From: Acidimicrobiales bacterium
GTDB taxonomy: Bacteria; Actinomycetota; Acidimicrobiia; Acidimicrobiales; VFJN01
Assembly (NCBI GenBank): GCA_035296625.1
Contig: DATHAO010000055.1
Coordinates: 8,410-72,409, forward strand
Direction: 5' to 3'
DNA length: 64,000 bases
Position 1 is the first letter of the stretch. Every line of letters begins with the position of its first letter. This document shows, piece by piece, positions 22,853 to 63,216 of the stretch. A program made the translations under genes and the position numbers. Below the pieces are notes generated by a model. That model was not told where the DNA came from. It ran no database searches and saw only the letters and a program-made list of their open reading frames with translations.

Positions 22853-22901
22853 GACGGTACTGCTGCGTTGGCGGGCCCATGGGGTCCAGCCTGCGCCGTA
22901 G

Positions 22902-22945
22902 GGCTGTGCACGGGCTGGGCACGACCTGGGAGGACCCTGGGAGCG
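22902..22945. promoter_or_regulatory. Four direct repeats phased at 11 bp in the divergent regulator/HtrA promoter region
   Basis: The units are gggctgtgcac, gggctgggcac, gacctgggagg and accctgggagc. Direct repeats spaced by one helical turn are the typical architecture of OmpR-family binding sites. Confidence 0.4.
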
Positions 22946-23008
22946 ACGTCCAGGATATTCACAGGTGCCGCCCAGTTCCCCCGCAGGCTATGGGGTCAGT
23001 GTGCAGCC

Positions 23009-24894: not shown

Positions 24895-25503
<609 letters not shown>

Positions 25504-47850: not shown

Positions 47851-49755
47851 TCACGGTCGTCTTCTCGGCCGCTGGGCGGCCGAGAGGTCGAGCGACGGGC
47901 TATCTCCGCTCGTGGAGCCTTCGGGACCGGGCCGCTGGGCCACGGCTGCGCCCGTCGGTGCCGCCTCTCCGGCCGAGTCGCGCACCCAGCGCCCGCGGCC
48001 GGACGTCTTGGCCGCGCGCATGGCGTCGTCGGCTCGCTGGAGCACATCGTCGACCGGCCCCTCGGCCACCGACGCCACGCCGATGCTGGCGTCGAGGTGC
48101 ACCTCGTAGGACGAGCCGGGCAGCGGGGTGATCGGCTCGCGGAGGACCTCGAGCAGTCGGGCCGCCACGACCTCGACGGCGTCGGGTGTGGTCAGCCGCT
48201 CGCACAGCACGGCGAACTCGTCGCCGCCGATGCGGGCCACCAGGTCGCCGGGCCGCAGGGCGTCGAGCAGCCGCCCGCCCACCGCGGCCAGCACGCGGTC
48301 GCCGACCGGGTGCCCGAGTTGCTCGTTGACCGGCTTGAAGTGGTCGAGGTCGAGGTAGATCACGGCGGCCTGGTCTTCGCCGGAGCGGGCCACCGCGGCG
48401 AGCCGGTCGATGAACGCCGGGCGATTCGCCAACCCGGTGAGCGGGTCGTGGGTGGCGGCGAAGCGCAACGTGGTGTGGCTTCGGTCCCATTGCAGCGTGA
48501 GACGCAGCAGGTGGCCGACGCGCCGCACGGTCGTCCAGTTGAAGCGGCTCGGGCGGCCGGCCCGGGTGCGCCACACCACAATGGCGGCGGCGGGTTCCCC
48601 GTCGCCCGGCAGCGCCACGGGGTGAACCCAGCAGGCCTCGTAGCCCTCGGCCCGGGCACGGGCAGCCAGCGCGGGCGGCAACTCGTCCAGCTCGGCGAAG
48701 TGGTCCTTGCCGGAGTGCACGGCCCGGGTCCACGGCGCGCAGGGGTCGGCCTCCAGCAGCCCGCCGGCCCGCCCCGCGGTCGCCTCGAACCGGTTGCCGG
48801 TCCAGCGGTCGCCGATCGCCACCGCGGTCTCGGGCACCATCTCCTCGAGGGCGGCGACCAGCTCGGCGAGCACCTCGGCCACCGGAGCGCCCTCGCCCAT
48901 GGCCCCGATCGCCAGGTCGAGGGCGCGCTCGTAGCCCACTCGGCGAACGTGGACGACGTACCAGGGCAGGCCCGTGCGCCGCGTCGTGAGGACGGACAAC
49001 TCGCAGGGCAGGTGCCGCCCATCGGCGTGCACCAGGTCGACGGGTAGGCCCACGCCGCCCCACGGCGTGATCTCGAACGCCTCGTCGATCACGCCGAACG
49101 CCTCGTAGACCTCGCCCAGCGACTGGGGAGCGACCACGCTGTCGAAGCGGGTGCCCACGAGCTGGTCTGGCCGCCACCCGAAGAACCGCTCCATCGAGGC
49201 GCCCGCCCACACGATCGTTCCGTCCGGGTCGATCAGCGAGACGGGGAAGAGCGCGTGGTCGGCCATCGCCGCGAAGGACTCGGCGGTCGGGCCCGAGGCC
49301 TGGACCAGCTCGATGCGGTTGCCGAACGGGTCGTCGGTGTGGGCCCGCACCGTGCCCGGCACGTCCTCGGCGGGCCGCACGTCGTGACCCGCGGCGGTGA
49401 TCCGGGCGGCCAGGGCGCCGAGGTCGGCGACCACGAGCACCGGGTGGGCCTTGCGCGCCGGGCGGAAGGGGTCCTCGACGCCCAGGTGCAGGGTCACCTG
49501 CGGTCCCTCGAACCAGCACCCGCCCCGCACGGCCAGCGCGGGGGGCTTGGGCACGGGGCGCAGCCCGAGCAGGTCGCCGTAGAAGCGGTGGGCGGCGGCG
49601 ACCGCCTCGTGGCCGGCGGGCATCGCCAGCTGGACGTGGTCGATGCCGAGCAGGAGCGGGGCGTCGGGGGGCGCGGCCGGCCCGTCCGGCCGTGGGGACG
49701 CCGCCTCGGCCGGGGGGCCGGGGGCCTCGGGGGGATCGTGCTCGGGGCGAACCAT
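47851..49755 (-). CDS. Diguanylate cyclase with N-terminal VOC/glyoxalase-like domain, a PAS domain and a GAF-like region
   Basis: VOC-like domain: GIDHVQLAMPAGHE...HPVLVVAD...DPFGNRIELV. PAS: LIDPDGTIVWAGASMERFFGWRPDQLVG. GGDEF domain: DPLTGLANRPAF...YLDLDHFKPVNEQLGHPVGD...RIGGDEFAV, with an RxxD I-site (RPGD) 5 residues upstream. The ATG start at 49755 is uncertain. Confidence 0.8.
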   Translation of the reverse strand: MVRPEHDPPEAPGPPAEAASPRPDGPAAPPDAPLLLGIDHVQLAMPAGHEAVAAAHRFYGDLLGLRPVPKPPALAVRGGCWFEGPQVTLHLGVEDPFRPARKAHPVLVVADLGALAARITAAGHDVRPAEDVPGTVRAHTDDPFGNRIELVQASGPTAESFAAMADHALFPVSLIDPDGTIVWAGASMERFFGWRPDQLVGTRFDSVVAPQSLGEVYEAFGVIDEAFEITPWGGVGLPVDLVHADGRHLPCELSVLTTRRTGLPWYVVHVRRVGYERALDLAIGAMGEGAPVAEVLAELVAALEEMVPETAVAIGDRWTGNRFEATAGRAGGLLEADPCAPWTRAVHSGKDHFAELDELPPALAARARAEGYEACWVHPVALPGDGEPAAAIVVWRTRAGRPSRFNWTTVRRVGHLLRLTLQWDRSHTTLRFAATHDPLTGLANRPAFIDRLAAVARSGEDQAAVIYLDLDHFKPVNEQLGHPVGDRVLAAVGGRLLDALRPGDLVARIGGDEFAVLCERLTTPDAVEVVAARLLEVLREPITPLPGSSYEVHLDASIGVASVAEGPVDDVLQRADDAMRAAKTSGRGRWVRDSAGEAAPTGAAVAQRPGPEGSTSGDSPSLDLSAAQRPRRRP

Positions 49756-49938
49756 TCGATCAGCCGCCGCTCGGGGATTGGGGACCGGACCTCGACGTGC
49801 CGCGGGCGACGAGCCCGGGCCGGAGCTTCGTCGCACCGGCCGGACGTCGAGCCCCCAGACGGGCCGAGGCGGTCATCTTGTCACCCGCGGGCCCGCCCCG
49901 CAGCCCGGGGGTCGGCGTTTGCCCGAGGGCGGCCGGGC

Positions 49939-49957
49939 AGACAAGTCTGTGACAAGT
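49939..49957. promoter_or_regulatory. Repeated GACAAGT motifs, 11 bp apart, overlapping the GntR start codon
   Basis: In agacaagtctgtgacaagt the direct copies are at 49940..49946 and 49951..49957. An inverted copy (cttgtca) lies at 49877..49883. Confidence 0.35.
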
Positions 49958-50687
49958 GCGCGAGGTCCGCTACCGATCGATCGCCGACGAGCTGCGGGGC
50001 CGCGTGGAGGCCGGTGAGTTCGGCCGGGGCCGACTCCTGCCCAGCGAGAGCGAGCTGTCGACCGCCTACGGGGTCAGCCGGGTCACCGTGCGCAAGGCGC
50101 TCGAGCTGCTGCGCGACGAGGGCCTGATCGACGCCCGGCAGGGCTTCGGCTGGTTCGTGGCGACCGACCCGGTGCGCCAGTCGCTGGCCCGCCTGGGCAC
50201 GATCGAGGAGCAGCTGGAGGCGCTCGGCAGCGCGTCGGAGCGGCGCATCGTGAGCTTCGGCGTCGTGCCGGCGCCGCCCCGGGCGCGCCAGGTTCTGGGC
50301 GCCGGCTCGGTGCTCGAGGCGCGGCGCGTGAACCTGGCCGACGGCGAGCCGTTCGCCCGGGTCACCGTGTGGTGCCCCGAGGACGTGGCCGCCGGCCTGT
50401 CGCGGGCCGAGGTCCAGCGAGCACCGTTCTACGACCTGGTCGGCGCGGCCATCGGCTCGGCCACCCAGACGATAGGGGCGGTGGCCGCCGGGCCCGAGGA
50501 CGCCGCCCTGCTCGCCGTGCCGGTCGGCTCCCCGATGCTGCGCTGCGAGCGGATCACCCGCGACGCCCGGGAGTCACCAGTGCTCCTGTCGGAGTTCGTG
50601 TTCCCGGCGCACCGCACCGAGTTCGTGGTCGAGCTGAATCGCGTCGAGCCCTCGATCGGCCCGTCCGGCCTCCGCCTCGTCCAGTAA
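49956..50687 (+). CDS. GntR family regulator (HutC subfamily, UTRA effector domain)
   Basis: The winged HTH is LPSESELSTAYGVSRVTVRKALELLRDEGLIDARQGFGWFV, followed by a UTRA-like C-terminal domain. The start is a GTG. Confidence 0.85.
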   Translation: MREVRYRSIADELRGRVEAGEFGRGRLLPSESELSTAYGVSRVTVRKALELLRDEGLIDARQGFGWFVATDPVRQSLARLGTIEEQLEALGSASERRIVSFGVVPAPPRARQVLGAGSVLEARRVNLADGEPFARVTVWCPEDVAAGLSRAEVQRAPFYDLVGAAIGSATQTIGAVAAGPEDAALLAVPVGSPMLRCERITRDARESPVLLSEFVFPAHRTEFVVELNRVEPSIGPSGLRLVQ

Positions 50688-50701: not shown

Positions 50702-53464
50702 TCAGGTCCTCCGGACGGATTCGGGCGTCGCGGCGCCCACGCACGCCGTGGGCAGCGGCACGGCCGGGTCGAGACGGGGGGCCTCGACGGGCGGTACGCC
50801 CGCCACGTCGACGCAGTAGTCCGCTCCGATCTGCGCCATGACCTCCGCCGGCACGAGCAGCCCGGTCCCCGGCCCGGCGTCGAGCCGGCGGGGTGCGGCG
50901 CCGGCCGTGAGCAGCTGCAGCACGTAGGCGGGCCCGTCGGGGCCGTCCCAATCGAGTAGCAGACCACCGTCCAGGGGGACGGCGCGGATGGCCGTCGCCG
51001 GGTTGGGCGTAGGGACGGTAGCCATCGGGGCGCTCGCGGGCGTGGCCTGGCTCGTCGGCGTTGTGGCCGTGCGGTCGGCCGAGCCCGGGCCCGCGCTGTC
51101 CTCACCCGTGGCCACCAGGTAGGCGCCCCCCAGGCCGAGCACGACCACGACGACGAGCAGCACGATGACCGGCAGCGCGGGAGGCCCGGCCCGCACGCCG
51201 GGGCGCCCGGGGCCCGGCGCAGGCGGGCGCGGCTCGGTGTCGACGTCGATGCCGGTCAGGGACCGGCCGCCGGATGCTGCGCCGTCGGACGCGCCGGCCC
51301 GTCCGTCGATGCGCGACCCGAAGCCGGGCCGGGTGCCTCCCTCGCGCTCGAGGCGCTGGCGCTCCAGCCGGGCCTGGCGGGCCCGCTCGAGGGCGCTAGA
51401 CGCGTTGCTGCGCTCGCCGCTCTCGACCGGACGGGCCGGCCGGGGCTCCCGCCGGTGGGCGCGGTCGTGGCTGCGGCGGGAGCGCGACTCGCCCGGAACC
51501 TCGCCGGCGGCGGTCCCGTCGGGCGCGCCGCGGGCCTGGTCGGCTCCGGCGAGGTCGCCCGCCGGCCCGGCGCCGTGCGCGCTCGACATGCCGTTGAGGC
51601 CGGTAGTGGCGCCCGCGCTGTCGGGCGGGGTGTCGGTCGAGCCGAACGCCGCCCACCAGGGGCGAGCCTCATCCTCCTCGCCCGATCCGTTGCCGGCGAT
51701 GTCACCGGTGGAGGGGCCCGTGCCAGGCATCGACGTGGTGGCGGCCCACGGGGGCCCGCCGCCGTCGCCGGGACGCCACGGGCTGTCGGCGGTGGCGGGT
51801 GCGCGGCCGAGGTCGGGTGCGGGGCCGGGGGTCCAGTCGGCGGTGGCGGGTGCGCGGCCGAGGTCGGGTGCGGGGCCGGTCCAGTCCGCGGCCGCCGAGA
51901 GGTGGTGGTCGTCGGCGGCCCCGGGGTGCCAAGGGCGGTCGTCGGCGCCGCCAGGGTGGGCGGCCGGGACGCCCGGCGTCGGGACGGCGGGGTCGGCCAG
52001 CCACGACCAGTCGGGACGGGGCTCGGCCGCAGGCTCGTCGCCCGCGCCCGAGGACCCGCCGGCCGGTGACGTCGGCAACGGGTCGAACCCGCCCCCGATC
52101 GGGACACCGGCCACGCCCGGGCCACCGGACCCGAGCACCGCCGGCCGCGCATCGGCGACGGGAGCGCGGTCGACGCTGCCGGCCAGGCGCCCGGCCAGGT
52201 CGGACAGCGTCGCCCAGGGGGTGCCGTCCGGGGCCGTGCCGGCCGTTGCGGCGACCGAGGCGTCGTCGGGCCACGGGAACGCAGGCACCTCCGAGCCAGC
52301 CGGCCCCCGGGGCGCCGCCGGCGTCGGGTCGTCGGAGGCTTCCGGCGTGCGGTCGGGCCCGAGCGGGGCGCGCGGCGTCAGCAGGGGCGCGACGGGAGCC
52401 ACAGGCAGTCCAGCTTCCGTCGCCGGGACGGGCGTTGCGGGCGGCGGGACGGGCGCCGTCTCAGGACCGGCGGGCGCCGCCGCGAAGCTGGCGTGGGCCA
52501 CCCCGGGACCGGCGGGCGCTGCCGCAGAACCGGCGGGCGCCGCCGCGGAACTGGCGGGCGCCGCCCCCGGGCCCGCCGGGGAGTCGCCCGGCACGGCGAG
52601 GTCGGCGACGATCGGCTCGGTGACCTCCATGCCGGCCAGCCGCTGGGCGTCCTGCAGGGCCCAGGCAAGCTCGAGCACCTGCTGCTGGCGCTTGCCCGGC
52701 GTATGGGTGAGCGCGGTGCGGAGGGCGTCCTCGAGGCCGGGCGGCACGTCGGACCGCTGGATCGTCGGCATCGGCATCTGCAGGATGCGCAGCAGCAGCG
52801 ACGCCGTCGAGTCCACCACGCCGCAGGTGGCGTGCGGCGGCTGGCCGACCAGCAGCGTGTAGATCACCGACGCGAGCGAGTAGACGTCGGTGGCCGCCGA
52901 CAGGTCCGTGCTCTCGAGCACCTCGGGCGGGGCGTGGTAGGGGATCGACCGGTCGAGCGCCGCGCTGATTCCGGCCGGCTGGCCGAACTCGGTGAGGCCG
53001 GCCTCGGTGAGCACCGGCTGGCCCTCGGCGCTGAGCAGGATGAGGTCGGGCGCCACGCCGCCGTGCACCACCCCGGCCCGGTGCGCCGTCTCCAGGGCCC
53101 CGGCGAGCGCGATGCCCATGCGCAGGACGGGTTCGACCGCGAGCACGCCGCTCGTGGCCAGCAACCCGTGGGTCGTCGTGCGCTCGTGCCCGTCGCTCAC
53201 CACGTACAGGCGCCCGTCGTCGAGGCGGCCGCTCGCATGGATGGTGACCAGGTGGGGGTGCTGGCCCAGCCGCCGGGCGGTCGCGACGGCTCGGTCGAAC
53301 CGCCGCCGGGAGGCGTCGTCGCTGACGCGTCCGTAGACCGTGACCGTCACCGCGCCCCCGTAGGCGTCGCTGTCGGCGGCGTAGAGGGTGCACGCCGGGC
53401 GGTCGCCGAGGAGGGAGAGGCTACGGCAGTTGGGGATCGCCGGGGCACCAGAGTCGCCACGCAT
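50702..53464 (-). CDS. Membrane-anchored Ser/Thr protein kinase-like protein with degenerated catalytic motifs (pseudokinase), a long disordered linker and a small extracytoplasmic C-terminal domain
   Basis: Kinase-fold landmarks are retained: YHAPPEV (the APE region), DVYSLASVIYTLLVG and LTHTPGKR. The TM helix is LPVIVLLVVVVVLGLGGAYLV. The ATG at 53464 was chosen from within ORF 50702..53701. Confidence 0.7.
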   Translation of the reverse strand: MRGDSGAPAIPNCRSLSLLGDRPACTLYAADSDAYGGAVTVTVYGRVSDDASRRRFDRAVATARRLGQHPHLVTIHASGRLDDGRLYVVSDGHERTTTHGLLATSGVLAVEPVLRMGIALAGALETAHRAGVVHGGVAPDLILLSAEGQPVLTEAGLTEFGQPAGISAALDRSIPYHAPPEVLESTDLSAATDVYSLASVIYTLLVGQPPHATCGVVDSTASLLLRILQMPMPTIQRSDVPPGLEDALRTALTHTPGKRQQQVLELAWALQDAQRLAGMEVTEPIVADLAVPGDSPAGPGAAPASSAAAPAGSAAAPAGPGVAHASFAAAPAGPETAPVPPPATPVPATEAGLPVAPVAPLLTPRAPLGPDRTPEASDDPTPAAPRGPAGSEVPAFPWPDDASVAATAGTAPDGTPWATLSDLAGRLAGSVDRAPVADARPAVLGSGGPGVAGVPIGGGFDPLPTSPAGGSSGAGDEPAAEPRPDWSWLADPAVPTPGVPAAHPGGADDRPWHPGAADDHHLSAAADWTGPAPDLGRAPATADWTPGPAPDLGRAPATADSPWRPGDGGGPPWAATTSMPGTGPSTGDIAGNGSGEEDEARPWWAAFGSTDTPPDSAGATTGLNGMSSAHGAGPAGDLAGADQARGAPDGTAAGEVPGESRSRRSHDRAHRREPRPARPVESGERSNASSALERARQARLERQRLEREGGTRPGFGSRIDGRAGASDGAASGGRSLTGIDVDTEPRPPAPGPGRPGVRAGPPALPVIVLLVVVVVLGLGGAYLVATGEDSAGPGSADRTATTPTSQATPASAPMATVPTPNPATAIRAVPLDGGLLLDWDGPDGPAYVLQLLTAGAAPRRLDAGPGTGLLVPAEVMAQIGADYCVDVAGVPPVEAPRLDPAVPLPTACVGAATPESVRRT
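51785..51879. repeat. 51-bp tandem repeat x2 inside the pseudokinase linker
   Basis: Perfect 44-bp cores (gtcggcggtggcgggtgcgcggccgaggtcgggtgcggggccgg) lie at 51785..51828 and 51836..51879. On the minus strand they encode PAPDLGRAPATADW repeats. Confidence 0.9.
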
Positions 53465-53541
53465 GACGGACGGCGAATCTACACCGTCCCCGGGGCGCCG
53501 GATCCCGGAACGAGGGCCCGGCGCCCCTCGCGCGCAGTTCG

Positions 53542-56500
53542 TCACACGCTGCCGACGCGCCCCGCCTGCTCGCCCTCGATGCGACGCATCTGGCTCTTGG
53601 GGAGCACGTGCCACACGTGCTCGGCCATCTCGTCCCAGCGGTCGAGCACCTTGAGCGATCGCGGCGAGGCCGTCAGCTCGGCGTGCCGCTCGACCAGCCA
53701 CCGCACCTCCTGCAGAGCGGCCGCGTCGGGGCGGAACGCGTCGACGAGGTCCGGGTTGAGGCGGGTGGCGAGCCGGTCGAAGCGGTCGTCGAACAGGAAC
53801 GCCTGGCCACCGGTCATCCCGGCGCCCAGGTTCCAGCCGACACGGCCCAGCACGACGACCGTGCCGCCGGTCATGTACTCGCAGCAGTGGTCGCCGGCGG
53901 CCTCCACGACCGCGGTCGCCCCCGAGTTGCGCACGGCGAAGCGCTCACCGGCCGCCCCGGCGATGTACAGCTCGCCGCCGGTGGCGCCGTAGAGGCACGT
54001 GTTGCCGGCGAGCACCGGCACGTCGGAGCCGTCGTTGGCTGGGCGGCGGATCGTCACGATGCCACCGCCCATGCCCTTGCCCACATAGTCGTTGGCCTCG
54101 CCGGTCAGCTCGATCTCGACGCCGTGGGTGAGGAAGGCGGCGAAGCTCTGGCCGGCGGTGCCGGTCAGGCGCACCCGCGCCGTGCCGCGGGGCGGCAGCT
54201 CGCCGTATTCGAGGGCGATGGCCCCCGACAGCGAGGCGCCGATGGCCCGGTCGGCGTTGCCGATCGCGTACGCGAGCTCGATGTCGTCGCCGTCCCACAC
54301 GCGGCGGAAGGCGTCGGCGAGCAGCTGGTCGCCCAGCTCCGCCCGCGGGTCCTGCAGTGCCACCCGCTCGACGAAGCGGCGGGGCCCATCGGTGTCGGCC
54401 GGCGCCTCGAGCAGCGGCGCCAGGTCCATGGCGTCGGCCCGCTCGTTGCCGGTGCGCCGCTGGCGGAGCAGGTCGACGCGGCCGATCGCCTCGTCGAGGC
54501 TGCGCAGGCCCAGCTTGGCGAGGTAGCCGCGCACCTCCTCGGCCACGAACAGGAAGTACGCCGCCACGCCCTCGGGCGTGCCGGTGAAGTTGGCCCGCAG
54601 GTGCGCCCGCTGGGTGGCCACCCCGGGCTTGCAGGTGTCGCGGTGGCAGGCCCGCAGCATGATGCAACCCTCGGCGATCATCGCCGCGGTGCCGAAGCTG
54701 TACTCGTCCGCGCCGAGCAGGGCGCTGACTATGACCTCGCGGCCGGTGAGGAACCCGCCGTCGACCCGGAGGCGCACGCGGCTGCGCAGGCCGTTGTCGA
54801 CCAGCGCCCGCTGGGCGTCGACCAGGCCGAGCTCCCAGGGGAGGCCGGCGTGCTTGATCGACGAGAGGGGGCTGGCGCCAGTGCCGCCGTTCTGGCCGCT
54901 GATGTGGACCACGTCGGCCAGGGCCTTTACGCAGCCGGCGGCGATCGTGCCGATGCCGTCCTCGGAGACGAGCTTCACCGACACCTGGGCGGCGTTGACC
55001 TGCTTGAGGTCGTAGATGAGCTGCGCCAGGTCCTCGATGGAGTAGATGTCGTGGTGGGGCGGCGGCGAGATCAGACCGACGCCGGGCTGGGTGTGGCGCA
55101 GGCGGGCGATCTCGGCCGAGACCTTGTGGCCGGGCAGCTGGCCGCCCTCGCCGGGCTTGGACCCCTGCGCCATCTTGATCTGCAGCTCGTCGGCGTGCGC
55201 GAGGTATTCGGGGGTGACGCCGAAGCGGCCCGAGGCGATCTGCTTGATCTTCGAGTTCTTGTCGTCGCGGCCCTGGCCACGGGTCCTGTACCGGTAGGGG
55301 TCCTCGCCGCCCTCGCCGCAGTTCGACAGGGCCCCGAGCAGGTTCATGGCCTGGGACAGCGTCTCGTGGGCCTCCTTCGACAGAGCGCCGTGCGACATGG
55401 CCCCGGTCGAGAAGCGTTTGGCGATCGTGCTGGCCGGCTCGACCTCGTCGAGCGGGACCGGCGGACCGGCGGGCGCCAGCTCCAGCAGGTCGTGCAGCTC
55501 GATCAGGGGCCGGTCGTTCGCCATCTTGGCGAACGCGTCGTAGCGCTCCGACGACTCTGACCGGATCGCCGACTGCAGCAGGTGGGCCGCGACCATCTCG
55601 CGGGTCTGGCCGTCCGTCGGGGGCTCCTGCACGAGCGTGAGGTCGTTCAGGGCCTGGACCGTGTCCTTGTCCTTGCCGTGGGGCTCACCGCCCTTGCGCA
55701 CCCGGTAGAAGCCAGGCGAGTCGAGGTCGACCCGATCGGCCCAGGCGACCGCGTGGCGGCGGAGAGCGTCCTCGGTCAGCGCCCGCCACCCGATGCCGCC
55801 CACGACGTTTGGCGTCCCGGTGAAGCACAGGTCCACGACCTCGGGCGCGAGGCCGACAACCTCGAAGATCTGGGCGCCGCGGTACGAGTCGACAGTCGAG
55901 ATGCCCATCTTCGAGAGGATCTTCAGCACGCCGGCCTCGACCGCCGCCTGGTAGTTGATCTGCGCCTCGGGGCTGGTGGCCTCGCCCTCGTCGCCCTCGT
56001 CGGCCTCGGAGGCCACGGTCGCCAGCGCGAGGCGCGGGCAGATCGCGTCCGCACCGAAGCCGAGCAGCGCGGCGAAGGTGTGCACGTCGACGACGTCGTC
56101 GGCTACCAGGACCAGCGAGGTGAGCGACCGCAGCCGGCCGACCACGAGCGCCTGGTGCACGGCGCCGGTGGCGAGCAGGGAGGGGATCGGGGCCCGGTCG
56201 GGGCTCGCGTCGCCGGTCTCGAGCACGAGCGTGCCCGCCCCGCCCTCGACGGCGGCCACGGCCTCGTCGCGCAGGCGCTCGATGGCGGTGCGCAGCCCCT
56301 CGGCGCCCTCCGCCACCGGGAACGTCACGTCCAGCGGGATGACCGGCCACGGCGCCCGGTCGGTGAGCGCCAGGTTGTCGACGCCCGCCGGGTACAGGAA
56401 GAACGAGGGCAGCGTCAGCATGCGTGCCGCATCCTCGGTCTCGGACAGCAGCGGCGCCCGGGGGCCGAGCAGCGTGCGCAGGCTCATCACCAGGCGTTCG

Positions 56501-58086
56501 CGCAGCGGGTCGATCGGCGGGTTCGTCACCTGGGCGAAGCGCTGGCGCAGGAAGTGGCCAACCGCCCGGGGTCGGGGCGCCAGGTTGGGCAGCGGCGAGT
56601 CGTCGCCCATCGAGAACGTCGGCTCGTGCGCGCTCTCGGCCATTGGCCGCAGCACCATCGACAGCTCTTCCTTGGTGAACCCGTTCATGGCCTGGCGGGG
56701 GGCCAGGTCCTCGGGGACCTCGAGCGTCGGCGTGCCGGGGTCGAGCCGGTAGAACCCGTCGTCCGCCCAACGGGCGTAGGGGGCGGCGGCCGAGATGCGC
56801 TCCTGGCAGGCGTCGTCGTCGAGCAGCCCCCGGGTGGGGTCGACGAAGAGCATCTGGCCGGGCCCGAGGCGGCCGCGGGTGACCTGGCCATGGCCCGACA
56901 CGTCGATGGCCCCGACCTCGGAGCACACGCCGATGAAGCCGTCGTCGCAGACCTGGTAGCGCAGCGGCCGCAGGCCGTTGCGGTCGAGCCGGGCGCCGAC
57001 GCCGATGCCGTCGGTGAACACGACGCCGGCGGGCCCGTCCCAGGGCTCCATCAGCGCCGAGTGGTAGCGGTAGAAGCCGCGGACGGCGGGGTCGAGGTCG
57101 CTGACGTTCTCCCAGGCCGAGGGCATGACCATCGCCATGACGTGACGGATGTCGCGCCCGGCCCGGGTGAGGACGTCGACCGCGGCGTCGAGCTTGCCCG
57201 AGTCGGAGTCGGCGTCGTCGAGCAGCGGGCGGAACAGCTCCTCGGGGCCGAGGCCGGCCTCCTCGGTGCCGAACGTGGCCCGGCCCCGCATCCGCCGCTC
57301 GTTGCCCCACAGGGCGTTGATCTCGCCGTTGTGGCACAGGGTGCGGAACGGCTGGGCCCGCTCCCACGTCGAGAGCGTGTTCGTCGAGAACCGCTGGTGG
57401 AAGATGGCGAAACTGCCTGCGAACCGGTCGTCGTGCAGATCCAGGAAGAAGTCGGCGACCGCGTCGGCCGGCGACAGGCCCTTGTAGACGAGCGTGCGGA
57501 ACGAGCACGACGCCACGTACGTCCCCGGGGCGTGCTGGTGGATGCGCCTGCGGAACCGCAGGGCGCGGCGCTCGTCGTCGCCGCCGTCGTCCGCGGCCGT
57601 GCGGAACAGCACCTGGGCGAAGCGGGGGGCGGTCTCGCGAGCGAGGTCGCCGAGCGCCGTCGGGTCGGTCGGCGGGTCGCGCCAGTCGACGACGGTCAGG
57701 CCCTCGGCCGTGGCGGCCTCGTCGACGGCCTTGCGGGGGTCGTCGCCCCGCACGAACAGGACGGCGACACCCGTGCGCTCGCCGAAGATCGCCGACGGGA
57801 TCGGCAGCAGGAGGCCCGAGCCGTCGGCGGTGCGGGCGTCGGCGGCGACGGCTCCCCGGTGCTTGACGCAGGCGAGGCCGTGGAGCGCCGCCGTGACGAT
57901 CTCCCGCGACGCTCGGCCCCGGGCATCGGCGACGAAGCCGATGCCACACGCATCTCTCTCGGGGGTCGTGGGGGGGAGCAAGGCGCGCACCTCCTGCCAG
58001 GGCGGCGAGCAAGCTCGCCGTACCGATGTGGTCGTCGCGGTGGGCTGCGAGAGGCTGCCGACGACGCGTCGGCTCGTCCAGCTCAC
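53542..58086 (-). CDS. gltB: Glutamate synthase large subunit
   Basis: The translation has about 1,500 aa. The Ntn-amidotransferase N-terminus is ERDACGIGFVAD. FMN-binding, Fe-S and C-terminal GXGXG domains follow (MAQGSKPGEGGQLPG, CHRDTCKPGVATQ, GGELYIAGAAGERF). The true start is probably internal: a TTG at 57981 lies 8 nt after AGGAGG. Confidence 0.9.
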   Translation of the reverse strand: MSWTSRRVVGSLSQPTATTTSVRRACSPPWQEVRALLPPTTPERDACGIGFVADARGRASREIVTAALHGLACVKHRGAVAADARTADGSGLLLPIPSAIFGERTGVAVLFVRGDDPRKAVDEAATAEGLTVVDWRDPPTDPTALGDLARETAPRFAQVLFRTAADDGGDDERRALRFRRRIHQHAPGTYVASCSFRTLVYKGLSPADAVADFFLDLHDDRFAGSFAIFHQRFSTNTLSTWERAQPFRTLCHNGEINALWGNERRMRGRATFGTEEAGLGPEELFRPLLDDADSDSGKLDAAVDVLTRAGRDIRHVMAMVMPSAWENVSDLDPAVRGFYRYHSALMEPWDGPAGVVFTDGIGVGARLDRNGLRPLRYQVCDDGFIGVCSEVGAIDVSGHGQVTRGRLGPGQMLFVDPTRGLLDDDACQERISAAAPYARWADDGFYRLDPGTPTLEVPEDLAPRQAMNGFTKEELSMVLRPMAESAHEPTFSMGDDSPLPNLAPRPRAVGHFLRQRFAQVTNPPIDPLRERLVMSLRTLLGPRAPLLSETEDAARMLTLPSFFLYPAGVDNLALTDRAPWPVIPLDVTFPVAEGAEGLRTAIERLRDEAVAAVEGGAGTLVLETGDASPDRAPIPSLLATGAVHQALVVGRLRSLTSLVLVADDVVDVHTFAALLGFGADAICPRLALATVASEADEGDEGEATSPEAQINYQAAVEAGVLKILSKMGISTVDSYRGAQIFEVVGLAPEVVDLCFTGTPNVVGGIGWRALTEDALRRHAVAWADRVDLDSPGFYRVRKGGEPHGKDKDTVQALNDLTLVQEPPTDGQTREMVAAHLLQSAIRSESSERYDAFAKMANDRPLIELHDLLELAPAGPPVPLDEVEPASTIAKRFSTGAMSHGALSKEAHETLSQAMNLLGALSNCGEGGEDPYRYRTRGQGRDDKNSKIKQIASGRFGVTPEYLAHADELQIKMAQGSKPGEGGQLPGHKVSAEIARLRHTQPGVGLISPPPHHDIYSIEDLAQLIYDLKQVNAAQVSVKLVSEDGIGTIAAGCVKALADVVHISGQNGGTGASPLSSIKHAGLPWELGLVDAQRALVDNGLRSRVRLRVDGGFLTGREVIVSALLGADEYSFGTAAMIAEGCIMLRACHRDTCKPGVATQRAHLRANFTGTPEGVAAYFLFVAEEVRGYLAKLGLRSLDEAIGRVDLLRQRRTGNERADAMDLAPLLEAPADTDGPRRFVERVALQDPRAELGDQLLADAFRRVWDGDDIELAYAIGNADRAIGASLSGAIALEYGELPPRGTARVRLTGTAGQSFAAFLTHGVEIELTGEANDYVGKGMGGGIVTIRRPANDGSDVPVLAGNTCLYGATGGELYIAGAAGERFAVRNSGATAVVEAAGDHCCEYMTGGTVVVLGRVGWNLGAGMTGGQAFLFDDRFDRLATRLNPDLVDAFRPDAAALQEVRWLVERHAELTASPRSLKVLDRWDEMAEHVWHVLPKSQMRRIEGEQAGRVGSV

Positions 58087-58232: not shown

Positions 58233-60206
58233 TCAGCGGCGGGGGATCACGAAGACGGCCGCGGGCTCGCCGATCTCGGCCATCTCGGTCACGCGGTCCC
58301 GAACGTCGGCCGGGGCCCGATCCTCGATGGCGATCGCCATCAGCGCCCCATCGACGGCGGGCACCAGGTCGCCGAGGCCGGCGGCGAGGAGGTCGTCGAC
58401 CACGTCGTCGTGCAGCTCGGCGTAGCGTCGCCGGTCGGCGTCGGAGCGCAGGTCGACCTTCGCCACCTCGATCGCCGCCGGGTCGTCCCTCCAGATCGCG
58501 ATGTCGTCGCCGACCGACAGGTGGACCTCGGCGTCCTCGGCGCCCGGGGCCATGACGCGGTGCTCCACCGCGCCGGTGCCGTGGAACTCGGGCACTCCGA
58601 CGTCGAAGCCTTGGCGGTCGAGCTCGAGCAGCAGGCCGAAGCCGGTGGCCCCGATCGCCACGGGGTCGGTCCAGGTGACGAGGTAGCGGGCCTCGCGCCC
58701 GCCGACGCCCGCCTCGTCGGCGGCGAGGGCGCCGACGGTGTCCGGGGCCAGCACGCGCAGCTGATCGGACTGGCCCGCCGCCGGCTCCTCGGCGTCGCGG
58801 GCGTCGAGCGTGAACAGCCCCGTCCACACCGCGACGACGGCGACAAGAGCCCACGACCCGATGCGGGCGGCGCGGCGCGGGTCGGACAGCGGGCCCGGAC
58901 CGGTGCCCCGGGCGGCCAGCGCGGCGCACAGCGTCCACACGGTGGCGACGACGACCAGGATCGCGATGCCCCAGGCCCAGAGCGCCAGGTAGTACCAGAC
59001 CTCGCCGAAGATGCGGCTGGCTGACACGACGCCCAGGACGAGCACGACGGCGACGAGCGCGTGCAGGCGCAGCAGGGCGGCGTGGCGCAACCGCCACGCC
59101 ATCGCCACGGCGCCGAGCCAGACGACGAGCAGGGCCGCGGCGGGCAGGAGCGAGCCGGACGTGGCGATGTCACCGGTGAGCAGGCGCCACAGGTTCAGAT
59201 GCACACCCACCAGCTCCGCCCCGACGCCCAGGCCGACCGACTCCTCGGACGGGTTCCGGAAGCTCTCGACGATCATCGAGGCGTTGCCCGGGTCGTTCGT
59301 GAGCTGGTCGAGCAGGGGCGGCGTCCACAGCAGCAGGCCGAGCAGCAGCGACCCGCCACCCCAGCGCAGCAGTGGCCGCCGGGCCGCGGTGTCGCGCCGG
59401 TGCACGAACGCCCACACGGCGGCGGCCGCCACGGTCAGGCCGGCCACGCCGCCGATGAGGCCCAGGTACGAGACGTGGGTCTGCATGCAGAACGAGCCGG
59501 CGAACACGGCCAAGGGCAGCATCGCTAGGTCGCCGCACAGCACCGACCAGATGGCGAGCAGGAACAGCAGCCACCACAGCACCGGCATGTACGGGTTCCA
59601 CGGCTCGACGAACACGCCGGTGCCGTAGGCGTGGAGCAGCACGGCCAGGGCGGCGCCGAACCCGAGCGCGAGGCGTAGGCCGCCCCGCCGGTGGGCCACG
59701 CCCAGGATGCCGGCCATGGCCACGACGTGCAGCGCCACCGATGCCGCCTGGAGGGCGAACGCCGTGGTGCCGAACAGCTTGTAGAACGGCCACAGCGCCA
59801 GGAAGCTCAGCGGGCCCGGGTGGCTGCCCTGCTCGCCGTAGGCCTGGATGCGCCCGGCCAGCCCGACGAGCGGCGTGTGCCGGCCGCCGACGTCGCGGAC
59901 CCGCAGCTCGGTCTGCGCCAGATCGAGGAGGGGGTACCAGCGCGGGCTGTGCAGCACGGCGACCGCCACCACCAGGGGGACGGCGAGCACGGCCAGCAGC
60001 AGCGCCACGAGCGTCGGCGAGCGTCGTCCCTCGTCGAGGGGCACGGCGCCGGGCAGGGGTGCGCCGCGACCGGGGTCGACGACCTCGGTGCCGCCCGTCC
60101 CGCGACCGCCTCGGCGCTCGCCGGCGGCCGTGGCGGCGCCGGTGCCCGCGGCCGTCGGGCGCGGAGCGGCGGCCGGGGTGCCGGTGCCGGTCTCCGTGTC
60201 GGTCAC
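58233..60206 (-). CDS. Uncharacterised polytopic membrane protein (about 12 TM helices plus a ~200-aa C-terminal soluble domain), possible GT-C-fold glycosyltransferase; paralogue 1
   Basis: 657 aa, counted from the GTG at 60206, which overlaps the upstream stop in a GTGA junction. There are many hydrophobic helices. The first loop, RWYPLLDLAQTELRVRDVG...GSHPGP, is conserved with the neighbouring paralogue. The rest of ORF 58233..61508 is an out-of-frame read through that paralogue. Confidence 0.7.
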   Translation of the reverse strand: MTDTETGTGTPAAAPRPTAAGTGAATAAGERRGGRGTGGTEVVDPGRGAPLPGAVPLDEGRRSPTLVALLLAVLAVPLVVAVAVLHSPRWYPLLDLAQTELRVRDVGGRHTPLVGLAGRIQAYGEQGSHPGPLSFLALWPFYKLFGTTAFALQAASVALHVVAMAGILGVAHRRGGLRLALGFGAALAVLLHAYGTGVFVEPWNPYMPVLWWLLFLLAIWSVLCGDLAMLPLAVFAGSFCMQTHVSYLGLIGGVAGLTVAAAAVWAFVHRRDTAARRPLLRWGGGSLLLGLLLWTPPLLDQLTNDPGNASMIVESFRNPSEESVGLGVGAELVGVHLNLWRLLTGDIATSGSLLPAAALLVVWLGAVAMAWRLRHAALLRLHALVAVVLVLGVVSASRIFGEVWYYLALWAWGIAILVVVATVWTLCAALAARGTGPGPLSDPRRAARIGSWALVAVVAVWTGLFTLDARDAEEPAAGQSDQLRVLAPDTVGALAADEAGVGGREARYLVTWTDPVAIGATGFGLLLELDRQGFDVGVPEFHGTGAVEHRVMAPGAEDAEVHLSVGDDIAIWRDDPAAIEVAKVDLRSDADRRRYAELHDDVVDDLLAAGLGDLVPAVDGALMAIAIEDRAPADVRDRVTEMAEIGEPAAVFVIPRR

Positions 60207-62188
60207 CGCGACACCTCGCCGACGAACACGGCCACCGGCTGCGGGATGGCGTTCAGCCGGTCGAAGACGGCCGCCAGGTCGGCGGGCATGCGCGCGTCGA
60301 TGGCGGCGGCCATGCGGACGCGCTCGAACGTGCCGGCCAGGTCGTGGAGCCCCTCGGCCTCGAGGCGGTCGACGATCTGGCGGTCGATCCGTCGGGTCTC
60401 CGCCTGCTCCGCCTGGGACCGGGGCTCGTAGACCGACACCTGGTCCACGCCGGGCCGCGACCGCCAGGCCGCGATGTCGGCATCGCCCACCGACACGTGG
60501 ACCTCGGCGTCGGCCTCGTCGGCACGCATGGTGCGGTGGGCGCCGACGGCCACGTCGTTGAACGGCTGGTCGTCGGTGCTGACGTCGAAGCCGTGCCGTT
60601 CCAGGTCGAGCAGCAGGCTGAAACCCGGCGAGCCTAGGTCGACCGGGTCGACCCAGGTGACGAGGTAGGTGCCGTCGCGGCCGCCGCCCGGCACGTCGCC
60701 CCGGCCCAGCGCGGCGATCGTGTCCGGCGCCAGCTGTCGCAAGGCGGCGGACACGCGGGGATCGGGATCGTCGGTCCCGGTGGCGTCGGCGATGAACAGC
60801 AGGGCCGGCACCAACGCCAGCACCGTCAACACCGCGGGCCGAACCCACGCCGGCGGTTCGGCGGCGACCGGCGCCGCCGCGGTGGCCTCCTGGTCCTCGG
60901 CCGAGCCCGAGTCCGGCGCCGGCTCGGGCGCCCGGGCCAGGGCGACACCCACGGCCACGACGGCGGTGGCCACCACGGCGCCCAGCGTCAGGGCGATCGT
61001 GCCGCCCAACCAGTACGTGAGGTACGCCCAGGCCACGCCGAAGATGCGGCTGATGGACACCACGGCCAGCACCAGCGCGGCGCCGACGACGGCGTGCAGG
61101 CGCAGCAGCTTGCCGTGCCGCAGCCAGGCGGCCACCGCCACCGCCACGGCCCAGGCCACCAGCAGCGTCACGGCGGGTGCGTTCGTCCTGGCCGGATCGG
61201 CGCCCACGAAGGCCAGGGGGTCGAGGCGCGCCAGGAACAGGTCCCACGCCGGCCGCAGGCCCAGCGGCTCGTCGGCCGGATGCCCGAAGTTCTCGACGAT
61301 GATCGACAGGTTGCCCGGCGAGTTGGCCAGCTGCTGGACGATGGGCGGCAGCCACAGCAGCAGGCCCAGCCCGGCGCTCGCCGCGCCCCAGACGGCGATC
61401 CGGCGCCTCTGCCCGCGTCGCCGTACGGCCACGACCACCAGCCATGCCGCCGTGACGGCCAGCAACCCGCCGACGAGGCCGACGTAGGGCACGTGGGTCT
61501 GTGCGCACAGGCTCCCCGCTACGACCACCACGGCCAGCAGGGGCAGGTCGTCACACAGCACCGACCACACGCCGAGCAGCACGACCGCCCACCACAGCAC
61601 GGGGAAGTGCGGGTTCCAGGGCATGGTGACCAGCTCGGGTCCGTAGTAGCGCAGCAGGAGCCCCATGCCGGCGGCCACGCCCACGGCGCCCTGGGGACCC
61701 CAGCGCCGGTAACCGATCCACACGGCGAGCCCGATGGCCACGACGTCGAGCACCACGCCGGCGGCCTGCATCGACCACGCGCTGCTGCCCAGCAGCCGGT
61801 AGACCGGCGCCATCGAGTAGAAGCTGATGGGGCCCGGGTGGCTGCCCTGCTGGCCGAAGCCGAAGATGCGGCCGCCCAACCCCACGAGCGGCGGGTGGCT
61901 GGACCCCACGTCGCGGATCCGCATCTCGATCTGGGCCATGTCGACCGAGGGGTACCAGCGGGGCGTCCGCTGGATCGCCAGGGAGATGCCTAGCGGCAGC
62001 GCCAGCAGCGTCGTGAGCCCGGCCACGAGCGCCCGGCGGCGCCGGGCCTCGCCGGTGTCGCGCTCGCTGGCGTCCGCCCCCGCGGTGCCGGCGGCCCGGC
62101 CCTCGGCCTCGTCGGCCGACCCGCCGGCGGGGCGGCTGTCGCGATCGACGCTCTCGGCGGCGCCGAGCTGGTCGATCGCGCCGCTCAC
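60203..62188 (-). CDS. Uncharacterised polytopic membrane protein, paralogue 2 of 58233..60206
   Basis: 661 aa. It is collinear with paralogue 1, and roughly half the positions are identical in the stretches I aligned by eye. The GTG start overlaps the upstream SDR stop in a GTGA junction. Confidence 0.7.
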   Translation of the reverse strand: MSGAIDQLGAAESVDRDSRPAGGSADEAEGRAAGTAGADASERDTGEARRRRALVAGLTTLLALPLGISLAIQRTPRWYPSVDMAQIEMRIRDVGSSHPPLVGLGGRIFGFGQQGSHPGPISFYSMAPVYRLLGSSAWSMQAAGVVLDVVAIGLAVWIGYRRWGPQGAVGVAAGMGLLLRYYGPELVTMPWNPHFPVLWWAVVLLGVWSVLCDDLPLLAVVVVAGSLCAQTHVPYVGLVGGLLAVTAAWLVVVAVRRRGQRRRIAVWGAASAGLGLLLWLPPIVQQLANSPGNLSIIVENFGHPADEPLGLRPAWDLFLARLDPLAFVGADPARTNAPAVTLLVAWAVAVAVAAWLRHGKLLRLHAVVGAALVLAVVSISRIFGVAWAYLTYWLGGTIALTLGAVVATAVVAVGVALARAPEPAPDSGSAEDQEATAAAPVAAEPPAWVRPAVLTVLALVPALLFIADATGTDDPDPRVSAALRQLAPDTIAALGRGDVPGGGRDGTYLVTWVDPVDLGSPGFSLLLDLERHGFDVSTDDQPFNDVAVGAHRTMRADEADAEVHVSVGDADIAAWRSRPGVDQVSVYEPRSQAEQAETRRIDRQIVDRLEAEGLHDLAGTFERVRMAAAIDARMPADLAAVFDRLNAIPQPVAVFVGEVSR

Positions 62189-63216
62189 GGCAACCGCTTG
62201 AGCAGCTTCAGCAGGCCGAGCTTGACCGGCGACTGGTGGTGCGACCGGTCACCCGCCCCCAGCGTGGACCGGTTGGCCAGGAACCACTCGTACGATTCGA
62301 TGACCGCGGACGCGTTGGAGTGCCGGGGCTGCCAGCCCAGCTCCTCCTGCGCCTTGGACGTGTCGAACCACAGCGACTCGCCGTAGACCAGCCAGTGGTA
62401 GGGCGCGAAGGGGGCGGCGCCCATCTCGGCCACGGCCCGCATGGCGGCCCGTGCCGGCCCGGTGGGGAGCGAGCGGACCCGTGACCCGGTGCCGGCGTGG
62501 TCGACCAGCGCCTGCAGCGTCTCGCGCATGGTGCCGAACTCCGTGGCGCCGATGTTGTAGGTGGCCGGCTTCTCCCGGTCGGCGGCCCGCAGGGAGGCGT
62601 GGGCCAGGTCGTTGGCGTGGACGAACTGGTAGACGTTGTCGCCCCCGCCCAGCACGTACACGGGCGCGCCCTCGGCCACGAACTCGAACAGCACGGCGAT
62701 GATGCCCAACCGGCCGTGCCCGAGAATCGTTCGGGGCCGCACGATCGACACGTCGAGCCCGGCGTCCGCGGCGTCGCGGCACAGGAACTCGGCCTCGAGC
62801 TTGGCCTTGCCGTAGGCCTCCAGCGGGCGGCCGGGCGTCTCCTCCGTGACCGGGTTCGTCTCCGGGATGCCGAAGATCGCGCTCGACGAGGTGTGCACCA
62901 CCTTGCCGACGCCTGTGTCGCGGGCCGCCAGCAGCACGTTGGCCGTGCCGGTCACGTTGACCGACCAGAACAGCTCGCGATCCTTGGCCAGGGGGACCTG
63001 CGCCACGTTGTTGAGCACGACGTCGATGCCCTCGCAGGCGCTGCGCATGGTGTCGAGGTCCCGCACGTCGCCTGCGACATACTCGAGTTCGTCGGCGCGG
63101 TCGCCCGGCGGGTTGAGGTCGAGGACCCGCACCCGGTCACCACGGTCGAGGGCCAGGCCCGTGAGGATGGACCCGAAGTAGCCGCTCCCGCCGGTGACGA
63201 GGACGGTCCTGGCCAT
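62185..63216 (-). CDS. NAD-dependent epimerase/dehydratase (extended SDR)
   Basis: MARTVLVTGGSGYFGS, with catalytic YGKAKLEAE. The ATG at 63216 shares one nucleotide with the upstream stop (TGATG). Confidence 0.85.
   Translation of the reverse strand: MARTVLVTGGSGYFGSILTGLALDRGDRVRVLDLNPPGDRADELEYVAGDVRDLDTMRSACEGIDVVLNNVAQVPLAKDRELFWSVNVTGTANVLLAARDTGVGKVVHTSSSAIFGIPETNPVTEETPGRPLEAYGKAKLEAEFLCRDAADAGLDVSIVRPRTILGHGRLGIIAVLFEFVAEGAPVYVLGGGDNVYQFVHANDLAHASLRAADREKPATYNIGATEFGTMRETLQALVDHAGTGSRVRSLPTGPARAAMRAVAEMGAAPFAPYHWLVYGESLWFDTSKAQEELGWQPRHSNASAVIESYEWFLANRSTLGAGDRSHHQSPVKLGLLKLLKRLP

Follow-up and report, generated by a model that had tools for sequence, protein, structure and literature searches.

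The stretch of DNA analysed here (64,000 nucleotides of contig DATHAO010000055.1 from an Acidimicrobiales bacterium, hereafter the window) has a G+C content of about 75%, and carries on its minus strand, directly downstream of a glutamate synthase gene, a gene for a receptor-like protein whose N-terminal domain resembles a Hanks-type serine/threonine kinase deprived of its catalytic residues. By the sequence definition of the term, this protein is a pseudokinase. The gene and the regions into which its product can be divided are the following:

50702..53464, minus strand: pseudokinase gene, 920 codons plus stop, with its ATG at 53464 (open reading frame (ORF) list, homologue N-termini, and G+C content at third codon positions, GC3)
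52595..53464, minus strand: pseudokinase domain, residues 1-290, of Hanks-type fold and catalytically degenerate (Pfam, phmmer against the PDB, AlphaFold2 (AF2), Foldseek)
51179..52594, minus strand: cytoplasmic low-complexity linker, residues 291-762, about 475 amino acids (aa) (composition)
51110..51178, minus strand: single transmembrane (TM) helix ALPVIVLLVVVVVLGLGGAYLVA, residues 763-785 (hydropathy scan)
50705..51109, minus strand: extracytoplasmic region, residues 786-920, 135 aa (hydropathy/topology, alignment)
50738..50995, minus strand: FN3-like beta-sandwich core, residues 824-909 (AF2 and Foldseek)

The full stop-to-stop ORF on the minus strand spans 50702..53701, and the start has been placed at the ATG at 53464 because the N-termini of close homologues begin with MGGESGAPAIPHCRSLS... 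and match the product from this codon onwards, giving a protein of 920 aa. The frame is regarded as coding from end to end, since its in-frame GC3 lies between 0.84 and 0.99 in each 100-codon window of the gene. A database protein 100% identical to the product (P0001) bears the name 'MAG TPA: protein kinase [Acidimicrobiales bacterium]', where MAG stands for metagenome-assembled genome; an exact look-up of the query protein among public contigs gave no match, and the genomic context was taken from homologue loci. Lysine is extremely scarce in the product, K258 (in the C-lobe) being the only one among its 920 residues, and the family-wide median is two lysines per kinase domain; this scarcity is attributed to the extreme G+C bias.

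The Pfam Pkinase profile (PF00069) matches residues 55-259 with 45.8 bits, above its cut-off of 31.7 (E=6.7e-12), and the nearest solved relatives by sequence (phmmer against the PDB) are the Mycobacterium tuberculosis (Mtb) kinases PknE, PknA, PknI and PknB together with StkP, with E-values from 1e-16 to 1e-12 (5e-16 for PknE and 3e-15 for PknA). Residues 1-290 were modelled by AF2 with a predicted local distance difference test (pLDDT) score of 88.8 and a predicted template-modelling (pTM) score of 0.88, and the best Foldseek matches of this predicted model are Mtb PknB/PknA (E~1e-16, template-modelling score 0.73-0.83). On this scaffold, the positions at which canonical kinases carry their catalytic motifs are occupied as follows:

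53381..53410, minus strand: Gly-loop remnant LGDRPACTLY, residues 19-28 (motif alignment)
53330..53350, minus strand: beta3 strand VTVTVYG, residues 39-45, with Thr42 in place of the ATP-binding Lys (HMMER against PknA VAVKVL)
53033..53071, minus strand: catalytic-loop remnant VVHGGVAPDLILL, residues 132-144 (HMMER against HRDVKPGN/HRDVKPEN of PknA/PknE)
52994..53011, minus strand: LTEAGL, residues 152-157, with E154-A155-G156 in place of DFG (HMMER against PknE VDFGI and PknA TDFGI)
52919..52939, minus strand: YHAPPEV, residues 176-182, the APE/P+1 region, which is kept here and in the active sister kinases described below (alignment)

According to the HMMER alignments, VAVK has become VTVT, with Thr42 opposite K42 of PknA; in helix alphaC, the RE-A of PknE/PknA reads RA-V, the Glu being replaced by Ala59; and HRDxKxxN has turned into H134-G-G-V-A-P-D-L141, where H134-G135-G136 stand opposite H-R-D and the catalytic-loop Lys and Asn are gone too. 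Glu154 represents a conservative replacement of the DFG Asp, and a metal contact is therefore formally possible. In the Gly-loop, the string G-[ED]-R is common to subgroups A-C of the family (see below), and Arg22 presumably falls on the second Gly of GxGxxG, as judged by alignment to the Mtb PknB sequence. The spacing from EAG to YHAPPE is 19 residues, two fewer than in the active sisters. A misaligned or migrated (WNK-like) lysine is impossible, as K258 is the sole lysine of the protein. Thus, as far as alignments and a predicted structure can establish it, the protein has lost the beta3 Lys as well as the Asp of HRD and that of DFG; the kinase fold has been kept, but none of the residues required for ATP/Mg binding and phosphotransfer. 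An earlier reading of the letters made without database searches (the sequence-only reading) had proposed both points. Its claim of homology with the kinase scaffold agrees with the Pfam score and the PknE/PknA matches, every string that it quoted occurs in the product at matching residues (among them DVYSLASVIYTLLVG, at residues 193-207), and the HMMER columns coincide with its by-eye alignment of the catalytic motifs (T42, A59, HGGVAPDL, EAG); the alignment to the Pkinase profile was also checked for a hidden Lys/Asp/Asp triad, and no such triad exists in a protein with one lysine overall. Its assertion that every motif had degenerated holds for the query protein, but not for most of its relatives, which still have the HRD Asp.

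About 95 close relatives are present in a large protein collection, 43-78% identical over the kinase domain, and those bearing a name all derive from Acidimicrobiales MAGs. The family numbers 87 clusters at 90% identity, and all 87 aligned domains are devoid of the beta3 Lys (nearly always Thr), the alphaC Glu and the Gly-loop pattern, with the exception of one subgroup in which GxG is retained in the Gly-loop. Four subgroups can be distinguished:

Subgroup A, which contains the query: HGG in the catalytic loop and E-[AV]-G at the DFG position
Subgroup B, the majority of the family: HGD...R in the catalytic loop and E-T-G at the DFG position
Subgroup C: HGD in the catalytic loop and D-I-G at the DFG position
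Subgroup D: HGG in the catalytic loop and D-L-G at the DFG position, with GxG in the Gly-loop

Overall, the HRD Asp (as HGD) occurs in around 70 of the 87 members, and around 30 of the 87 have an Asp at the DFG-Asp column (DIG/DLG/DTG/DMG). The 87 sequences are monophyletic in 100 of 100 neighbour-joining bootstrap replicates. Their mean p-distance to outgroup kinases is 0.69, versus 0.60 for the active sister lineage, which is the usual acceleration once catalysis has been lost. An exhaustive profile search of 1.84 billion representatives yielded approximately 32 clusters at 50% identity with the family signature, beyond which the scores fall to those of ordinary kinases; among GTDB species representatives, 22 pseudokinase loci were found (at least 49% identity), all of them from Acidimicrobiales, Acidimicrobiia or unclassified Actinomycetota MAGs. 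Conservation is concentrated in the structural core of the domain, the C-lobe surfaces and the TM helix. Altogether, these data show that the dead state is ancient and maintained by selection, and that the family is restricted to Acidimicrobiales/Acidimicrobiia.

Beyond the kinase-like domain, the linker is composed mainly of Ala (20%), Pro (17%), Gly (15%) and Asp (8%); across the family its length ranges from 147 to 750 aa and its sequence is unalignable, BLAST coverage of the query by homologues being about 31%. Three features were recognized within it:

52450..52580, minus strand: tandem repeat with a 21/63-nt period encoding an AAAPAGS-like peptide, residues 301-334 (Tandem Repeats Finder (TRF) score 125-178)
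51785..51886, minus strand: duplicated peptide DWTGPAPDLGRAPATA / DWTPGPAPDLGRAPATAD, residues 527-560 (TRF 51796-51878, period 18, score 80)
51341..51397, minus strand: short distal-linker motif SALERARQARLERQRLERE, residues 690-708, about 55 residues before the TM helix (motif scan)

Two short patterns recur in the linkers of the family and in none of the active sisters: AL[EDN]RAR[QE]AR (15 of 87 linkers, and also the pseudokinases of loci L007 and L009) and [AP]W[YF][TS]D (28 of 87). An N-in/C-out topology is assigned because the sequence is Arg-rich before the TM helix and carries acidic residues after it; the helix itself (consensus gppALPvivL..vVavL.lGvaWlV.tGdD) is strongly conserved among the pseudokinases and different in the active sisters. 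With regard to the outer domain, an AF2 model built from a 29-sequence alignment has seven strands and a pLDDT of 86.8, and FN3 domains make up almost the whole of the top 50 Foldseek matches in the PDB (probability ~1.0, E-values from 6e-3 to 8e-2, template-modelling scores of 0.4-0.64). The Pfam fn3 profile has no match in the query and a weak one in 2 of the 29 relatives. One Trp and two Cys (C884 and C908) are invariant in the outer-domain alignment, which fits a disulfide-stabilised extracytoplasmic module. Subgroup C is devoid of the outer domain, with about 27 residues beyond the TM helix. Searching the fetched loci with an outer-domain profile detected kinase and pseudokinase ORFs only, with no other architecture, and the same profile returned only short fragments from a large protein database, in a search limited by its word index.

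The nearest active kinases (P0059, P0060 and P0083, among others) are 42-44% identical to the query, with VAVK, HRDVKPxN and DFG intact, and 99 of 100 bootstrap replicates join them to the clade of pseudokinases. They share with the pseudokinases the strings YHAPPEV, LAGALETAHRAG and ASLLLRILQ and a C-terminal G.xVTEPVV tail, and have the same layout of linker, TM helix and FN3-like outer domain. The order gltB, pseudokinase, active kinase on one strand is found at loci L003, L007/L008/L010 and L009. The occurrence of a sister active kinase with the same architecture directly downstream in some genomes indicates that the pseudokinase most likely arose by tandem duplication; the simplest history, as judged from sequences and gene order, would be one in which the upstream of the two copies then lost its activity. 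The back-to-back N-lobe dimer site (R10/L33/D76 of Mtb PknB) apparently has no salt-bridge pair in either the dead or the live paralogues, and we draw no conclusion from it. The layout of a full receptor kinase had already been perceived by the sequence-only reading, and is confirmed by the repeat-bearing Ala/Pro/Gly/Asp-rich linker of about 475 aa, the one TM helix and the 135 outer residues, as well as by its presence in the active sister that adjoins the pseudokinase in some relatives; the structure prediction that had been proposed for the outer domain gave the seven-strand FN3-like sandwich with confidence. As for an active serine/threonine kinase or FHA-protein partner, also envisaged there, an active kinase does adjoin the gene in some relatives, but the 64-kb window showed no other kinase and, among about 45 ORFs scanned with Pfam, no FHA gene.

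The immediate neighbours of the pseudokinase gene in the window are:

53542..58086, minus strand: gltB, full-length glutamate synthase large subunit, directly upstream (NCBIfam NF008730, 1510 bits)
49956..50687, plus strand: convergent GntR/UTRA regulator, directly downstream, at the site of the active-kinase block of relatives (Pfam GntR and UTRA, synteny)

The association with gltB is strict, as this gene lies directly upstream on the same strand in 22 of 22 species-representative loci and in all metagenome contigs examined; in the window, 78 bp separate the gltB stop from the pseudokinase ATG. Neither in the window nor in the related loci with listed gene calls is gltB followed by gltD, and the pseudokinase holds that position; no gltD-like ORF was found among the window ORFs scanned with Pfam. 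On the other side, the query and most subgroup B/C loci present the pseudokinase followed by the convergent GntR/UTRA regulator, a GGDEF protein and a HAD-acyltransferase. In the tandem loci, the pseudokinase is followed by a block comprising the active kinase and genes for a TgpA-like transglutaminase, a DUF58 protein, a MoxR AAA ATPase and an fn3 protein of about 850 aa, the latter four being convergent and placed after the active kinase (L007:12212-19763, L009:11624-18680, and the contig carrying P0094). In the last of these, the active-kinase block lies between pseudokinase and GntR, and the whole block, including the kinase, is missing from between these two genes in most relatives; the TgpA-DUF58-MoxR-fn3 block was also searched for in the 64-kb window and is absent. 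From this comparison of loci, the pseudokinase emerges as the constant element and the live kinase as the variable one. Beside the block, 7-10 kb downstream, lie a WXG100 gene and one for an FHA-FtsK/SpoIIIE (EssC/EccC-like) ATPase (L009:18725-21650, L007:20060-22105), and in loci of Microbacterium, Cellulosimicrobium and other Actinomycetota, homologues of the FHA protein are separated from related kinases by about 3 kb. A search for WXG100/FHA-FtsK/SpoIIIE genes found none in the 64-kb window, and none within 10 kb in most family loci.

Two elements were identified between gltB and the pseudokinase start codon:

53476..53481, minus strand: TAGATT, a -10-like hexamer 11 nt before the ATG, candidate for an own promoter (upstream alignment)
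53492..53527, minus strand: hairpin of high G+C content, lying after the gltB stop and before the TAGATT box, which might terminate gltB (folding)

When the 130 nt before the start codon were aligned for 27 loci, TAGATT was found at the same position in 25 of them and TAGGGT in the other 2, the surrounding intergenic DNA being variable; the octamer GTAGATTC occurs once in the window versus 0.12 occurrences expected. The actinobacterial -10 consensus is TANNNT, and TAGATT would be a putative -10 box of this type, from which an mRNA virtually devoid of a leader would arise. No Shine-Dalgarno sequence precedes the pseudokinase ATG, a scan for sigma-70 and terminator consensus sequences around the gene returned nothing, and an Rfam scan of the whole window detected no RNA family. 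Because of the conserved box, the pseudokinase gene probably has a promoter to itself. In the window, the 70-nt segment preceding the box folds with a minimum free energy of -40.1 kcal/mol (z=-1.5). The equivalent regions of relatives are no more stable than shuffles (mean z -0.5), and the hairpin is not consistent among relatives, so that a conserved terminator after gltB finds no support.

Other features of the window and of related loci were recorded at a greater distance from these genes. Upstream of gltB, two ORFs of about 570-680 aa (58233-59951 and 60203-62248, both on the minus strand) are mutually similar by tblastn and syntenic with two NAD-dependent epimerases in nearly all related loci; neither has a Pfam or NCBIfam match, and they could be an uncharacterised cell-envelope/glycan module. 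A PAS-GGDEF diguanylate cyclase encoded beyond the GntR gene (47851-49836, minus strand) is a separate 661-aa ORF here and was called as a 1339-aa aconitase fusion at L001:13467-17486; an aconitase gene stands beside GntR in the contig carrying P0094. At one subgroup D locus (L005:10776-14381), the pseudokinase is followed by a small ORF and then by a large RHS-repeat/YD-shell polymorphic-toxin-like protein. Possibly acquired DNA lies at positions 16001-18000 of the window, where the G+C content is 0.66 versus ~0.75 elsewhere and a TetR-family gene occurs besides an HTH_31+DUF5753 regulator (16146-17345). A 2003-codon stop-to-stop frame (7273-13284, plus strand) contains short UvrD-helicase/AAA matches within its first 700 residues, the remaining ~1300 having no Pfam match. 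At 20349-24640, a histidine kinase of the HAMP-HisKA type is clustered with a response regulator of the OmpR type and an HtrA-like (trypsin-PDZ) protease, an arrangement resembling the mycobacterial MprAB-PepD envelope-stress module, and a P-II nitrogen regulator is encoded at 24895-25503.

From the functional point of view, we consider it rather probable that the protein is a non-catalytic membrane scaffold or an allosteric partner of Hanks kinases. As a bitopic protein, it would serve as a docking or allosteric module anchored in the membrane and independent of catalysis, binding its partners through helix alphaE, the P+1/APE region, helix alphaF, the ASLLLRILQ helix, the conserved C-terminal tail, the TM helix and the linker motifs. 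The likeliest partner would be a Hanks kinase, namely the active paralogue where it is present and another kinase elsewhere, and other signalling proteins could also be bound; the pseudokinase might either dimerise with the kinase and so modulate it, or, like the MviN domain, provide a scaffold that can itself be phosphorylated. A review covers bacterial pseudokinases with functions other than catalysis, MviN and EssB/YukC among them (PMC12599244). Several observations weigh against this proposal. The active paralogue is absent from the query locus, which makes a kinase partner hypothetical here: tblastn of the window with the active sister and with an unrelated kinase recovered the target gene only, with no second kinase, and Pfam searches of about 45 ORFs of the 64-kb window revealed no other kinase, FHA or PP2C gene. 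The loss of the outer domain in subgroup C implies that sensing by this domain is not essential to the family. Residual nucleotide binding or some odd activity is possible in subgroups B and C, as HGD is kept in both and the DxG Asp in the latter. Lastly, the position behind gltB weakly suggests a link to glutamate or nitrogen metabolism, and such a functional tie is itself weakened by the general conservation of gene order around the locus (GntR, GGDEF, HAD-acyltransferase) and by the candidate promoter.

Other explanations have been weighed against a non-catalytic scaffold or allosteric partner. The idea that the gene is decaying, or is an artefact of annotating a GC-rich genome, is effectively refuted: long spurious ORFs are numerous in high-GC genomes and the Pfam Pkinase score is low for a kinase (45.8 bits, versus 143 bits for the active neighbour in L003), but the codon-position GC pattern is correct across all 920 codons, the domain order is kept full-length in dozens of genomes, structural residues are invariant in the family and the structure models are confident. 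It seems very improbable that the protein is still an enzyme, i.e., a non-canonical kinase or nucleotide-using enzyme relying on other ATP-binding residues, as WNK, POMK, SelO or SidJ. Glu154 could bind metal at the DFG-Asp position, Arg22 and other arginines could touch phosphates, as proposed for ActPs2/DYD/DLHK (PMC12599244), and relatives retain HGD and D-I-G; nonetheless, the catalytic Asp, the loop Lys and Asn, the beta3 Lys and the alphaC Glu have been lost together in the query, there is no second lysine to replace them, and the substitutions of HRD and DFG vary by subgroup (HGG/HGD; EAG/ETG/DIG/DLG), and therefore indicate a relaxed catalytic constraint instead of a new active site.

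The constant gene order raises the question of a dedicated regulator of glutamate synthase or nitrogen assimilation, co-expressed with gltB and acting directly or via an FHA protein, as in the PknG/PknB-GarA-GltS circuit. Mycobacterial GarA activates glutamate synthase under the control of Ser/Thr kinases (PMC5448819), which provides a precedent, and gltB stands directly upstream throughout, across subgroups that are only 44-55% identical, with a gap of just 78 bp in the window and with gltD never in second place in the window or the listed related loci. On the other hand, the conserved -10-like box and the strong hairpin after the gltB stop in the window argue for a separate transcript, unrelated neighbouring genes are equally syntenic, no FHA gene is nearby (Pfam on about 45 window ORFs), and all the loci come from a single order, so that their arrangement may reflect inheritance rather than selection; we thus hold a dedicated regulator to be unlikely, though worth keeping in view. 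It appears highly unlikely that the protein serves a type VII-like secretion system as an accessory component in the membrane, in analogy with EssB/YukC, which interacts with the FHA domains of EssC. The topology equals that of EssB/YukC, tandem-kinase relatives carry the WXG100 and FHA-FtsK/SpoIIIE genes 7-10 kb downstream, and FHA-protein homologues accompany related kinases in other Actinomycetota; however, no WXG100, FtsK/SpoIIIE or FHA gene occurs in the 64-kb window or within 10 kb in most family loci, the association tracks the active-kinase block and not the pseudokinase, and the domain is a recent derivative of Hanks kinases with no YukC Pfam match at E<=10. A more elaborate and speculative possibility, to which we give little credence, is that a heteromeric receptor is made up of the pseudokinase together with its active FN3-receptor sister, as HER3/EGFR or BIR2/BAK1 are in eukaryotes, and that it would link glutamate synthase and nitrogen assimilation to a cue from outside the cytoplasm; where the live kinase has been lost from the locus, as in the query, the dead receptor would have turned into the conserved core of the pathway, signalling via the linker motifs and the TM helix with no kinase dedicated to it.

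Although catalogues of bacterial pseudokinases exist, experimental work on them is scarce, and both an atlas and a review ask for one tractable representative per family (bioRxiv 10.1101/2025.01.12.632604; PMC12599244). In this sense, the present family offers a natural experiment, with dead and live receptor kinases of identical architecture adjacent in some genomes and the dead copy alone in others, and with a gradation from subgroup to subgroup in what replaces the catalytic residues (HGD+DIG, HGD+ETG, HGG+DLG, HGG+EAG). It could reveal how a bacterial receptor kinase becomes a scaffold and which surfaces survive the loss of catalysis, and its fixed place behind gltB provides a concrete hypothesis on how nitrogen assimilation is regulated in Acidimicrobiia, a group abundant in soil and water but uncultured. 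No general principle is changed: this is a clean new example of an ordinary kind, and its family is well defined, with paired live and dead paralogues and a genomic association that is strict. Full-text literature searches retrieved no paper on kinases or pseudokinases of Acidimicrobiia, nor any linking a pseudokinase with glutamate synthase.

Among known systems, PknB, PknA and PknE share with the query an N-in arrangement of kinase domain, linker, single TM helix and extracellular sensor domain. The query differs from them in being catalytically dead, to judge by its aligned residues, in its single FN3-like outer module in place of PASTA, DsbG-like or beta-propeller domains, and in its far longer linker of ~475 aa; the PASTA-kinase model NF033483 matches the kinase part only, with 72.9 bits versus a cut-off of 450. 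Pairing of a kinase with a pseudokinase is well known among eukaryotic receptors, such as EGFR/HER2 with HER3 or plant BAK1 with BIR2. As in EGFR/HER3 and BAK1/BIR2, the dead receptor has a live paralogue with matching architecture, encoded next to it in some of the genomes; however, the origin is independent and the live partner is missing from the query locus. EssB/YukC of the firmicute type VIIb system is likewise bitopic, its N-terminal pseudokinase facing the cytoplasm and its C-terminal domain lying outside, with one TM helix between them, but it has no sequence homology to the query (no YukC Pfam match at E<=10), whose window is devoid of secretion genes.

Seven families of bacterial Hanks-type pseudokinases have been defined, namely ActPs1-3, GLW, CP1, DYD and DLHK (bioRxiv 10.1101/2025.01.12.632604; PMC12599244), in an atlas built from RefSeq/UniProt in which the word 'Acidimicrobi' does not occur (bioRxiv 10.1101/2025.01.12.632604); the comparison below rests on the published features of these families. 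ActPs1/2/3 are the most similar in kind, as they also have a Hanks-type fold with the whole triad substituted, belong to Actinomycetota, carry a TM helix C-terminal to the domain, derive from an active sister family and are presumed non-catalytic. Nonetheless, they show Arg at beta3, HRN and a deleted DFG, whereas the query family has Thr, HGG/HGD and a replaced DFG, and the HRD Asp, lost in 99-100% of ActPs1/2 and 97% of ActPs3, is kept by most of the query family. The triad is substituted in 99-100% of ActPs1 members, which is also true of the query protein though not of its family at large (around 70 of the 87 keep the HRD Asp and around 30 an Asp at the DFG-Asp column), and neither the G-helix deletion (~60% of members) nor the C-terminal PQQ2 of that family is found in it: a helix is predicted at 220-229, there is no deletion of ~20 residues, and Pfam gives no PQQ match. 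None of the ActPs2 features (beta3 Arg, HRD Asp to Asn, DFG deletion, and insertions of ~30 aa and ~200-250 aa) is present, the query showing instead Thr42, Gly136, E-A-G and a normal 290-aa domain. The same applies to DYD (with its beta3 Arg), DLHK (a helicase/DNA2 fusion), GLW (in place of HRD) and CP1 (a COG3899 fusion), none of whose features is seen in the query.

ActPs3 comprises the MviN-like proteins, and its deletion of ~40 residues in the activation loop is not found in the query; moreover, MviN is not among the best 60 PDB sequence matches or the top 50 structure matches, which include PknE/A/B/I, Stk1 and eukaryotic kinases. In M. tuberculosis, the pseudokinase domain of MviN (Rv3910) is phosphorylated by PknB, after which an FHA protein is recruited (PMC12599244). 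As an intracellular, ATP-blind kinase-like domain on an actinobacterial membrane protein, it is the best-documented model of how the query might work. It differs in being fused to a lipid II flippase and in its truncated activation loop, whereas the query has an N-terminal domain on a bitopic receptor-like protein, with a full-length activation segment, and is closer to PknB/PknA/PknE. Since the features of ActPs2, ActPs3/MviN, GLW, DYD, DLHK and CP1 fail and ActPs1 fits poorly, the Acidimicrobiia proteins probably constitute an apparently undescribed family of bacterial pseudokinases, set apart from those of the atlas by their descriptions.

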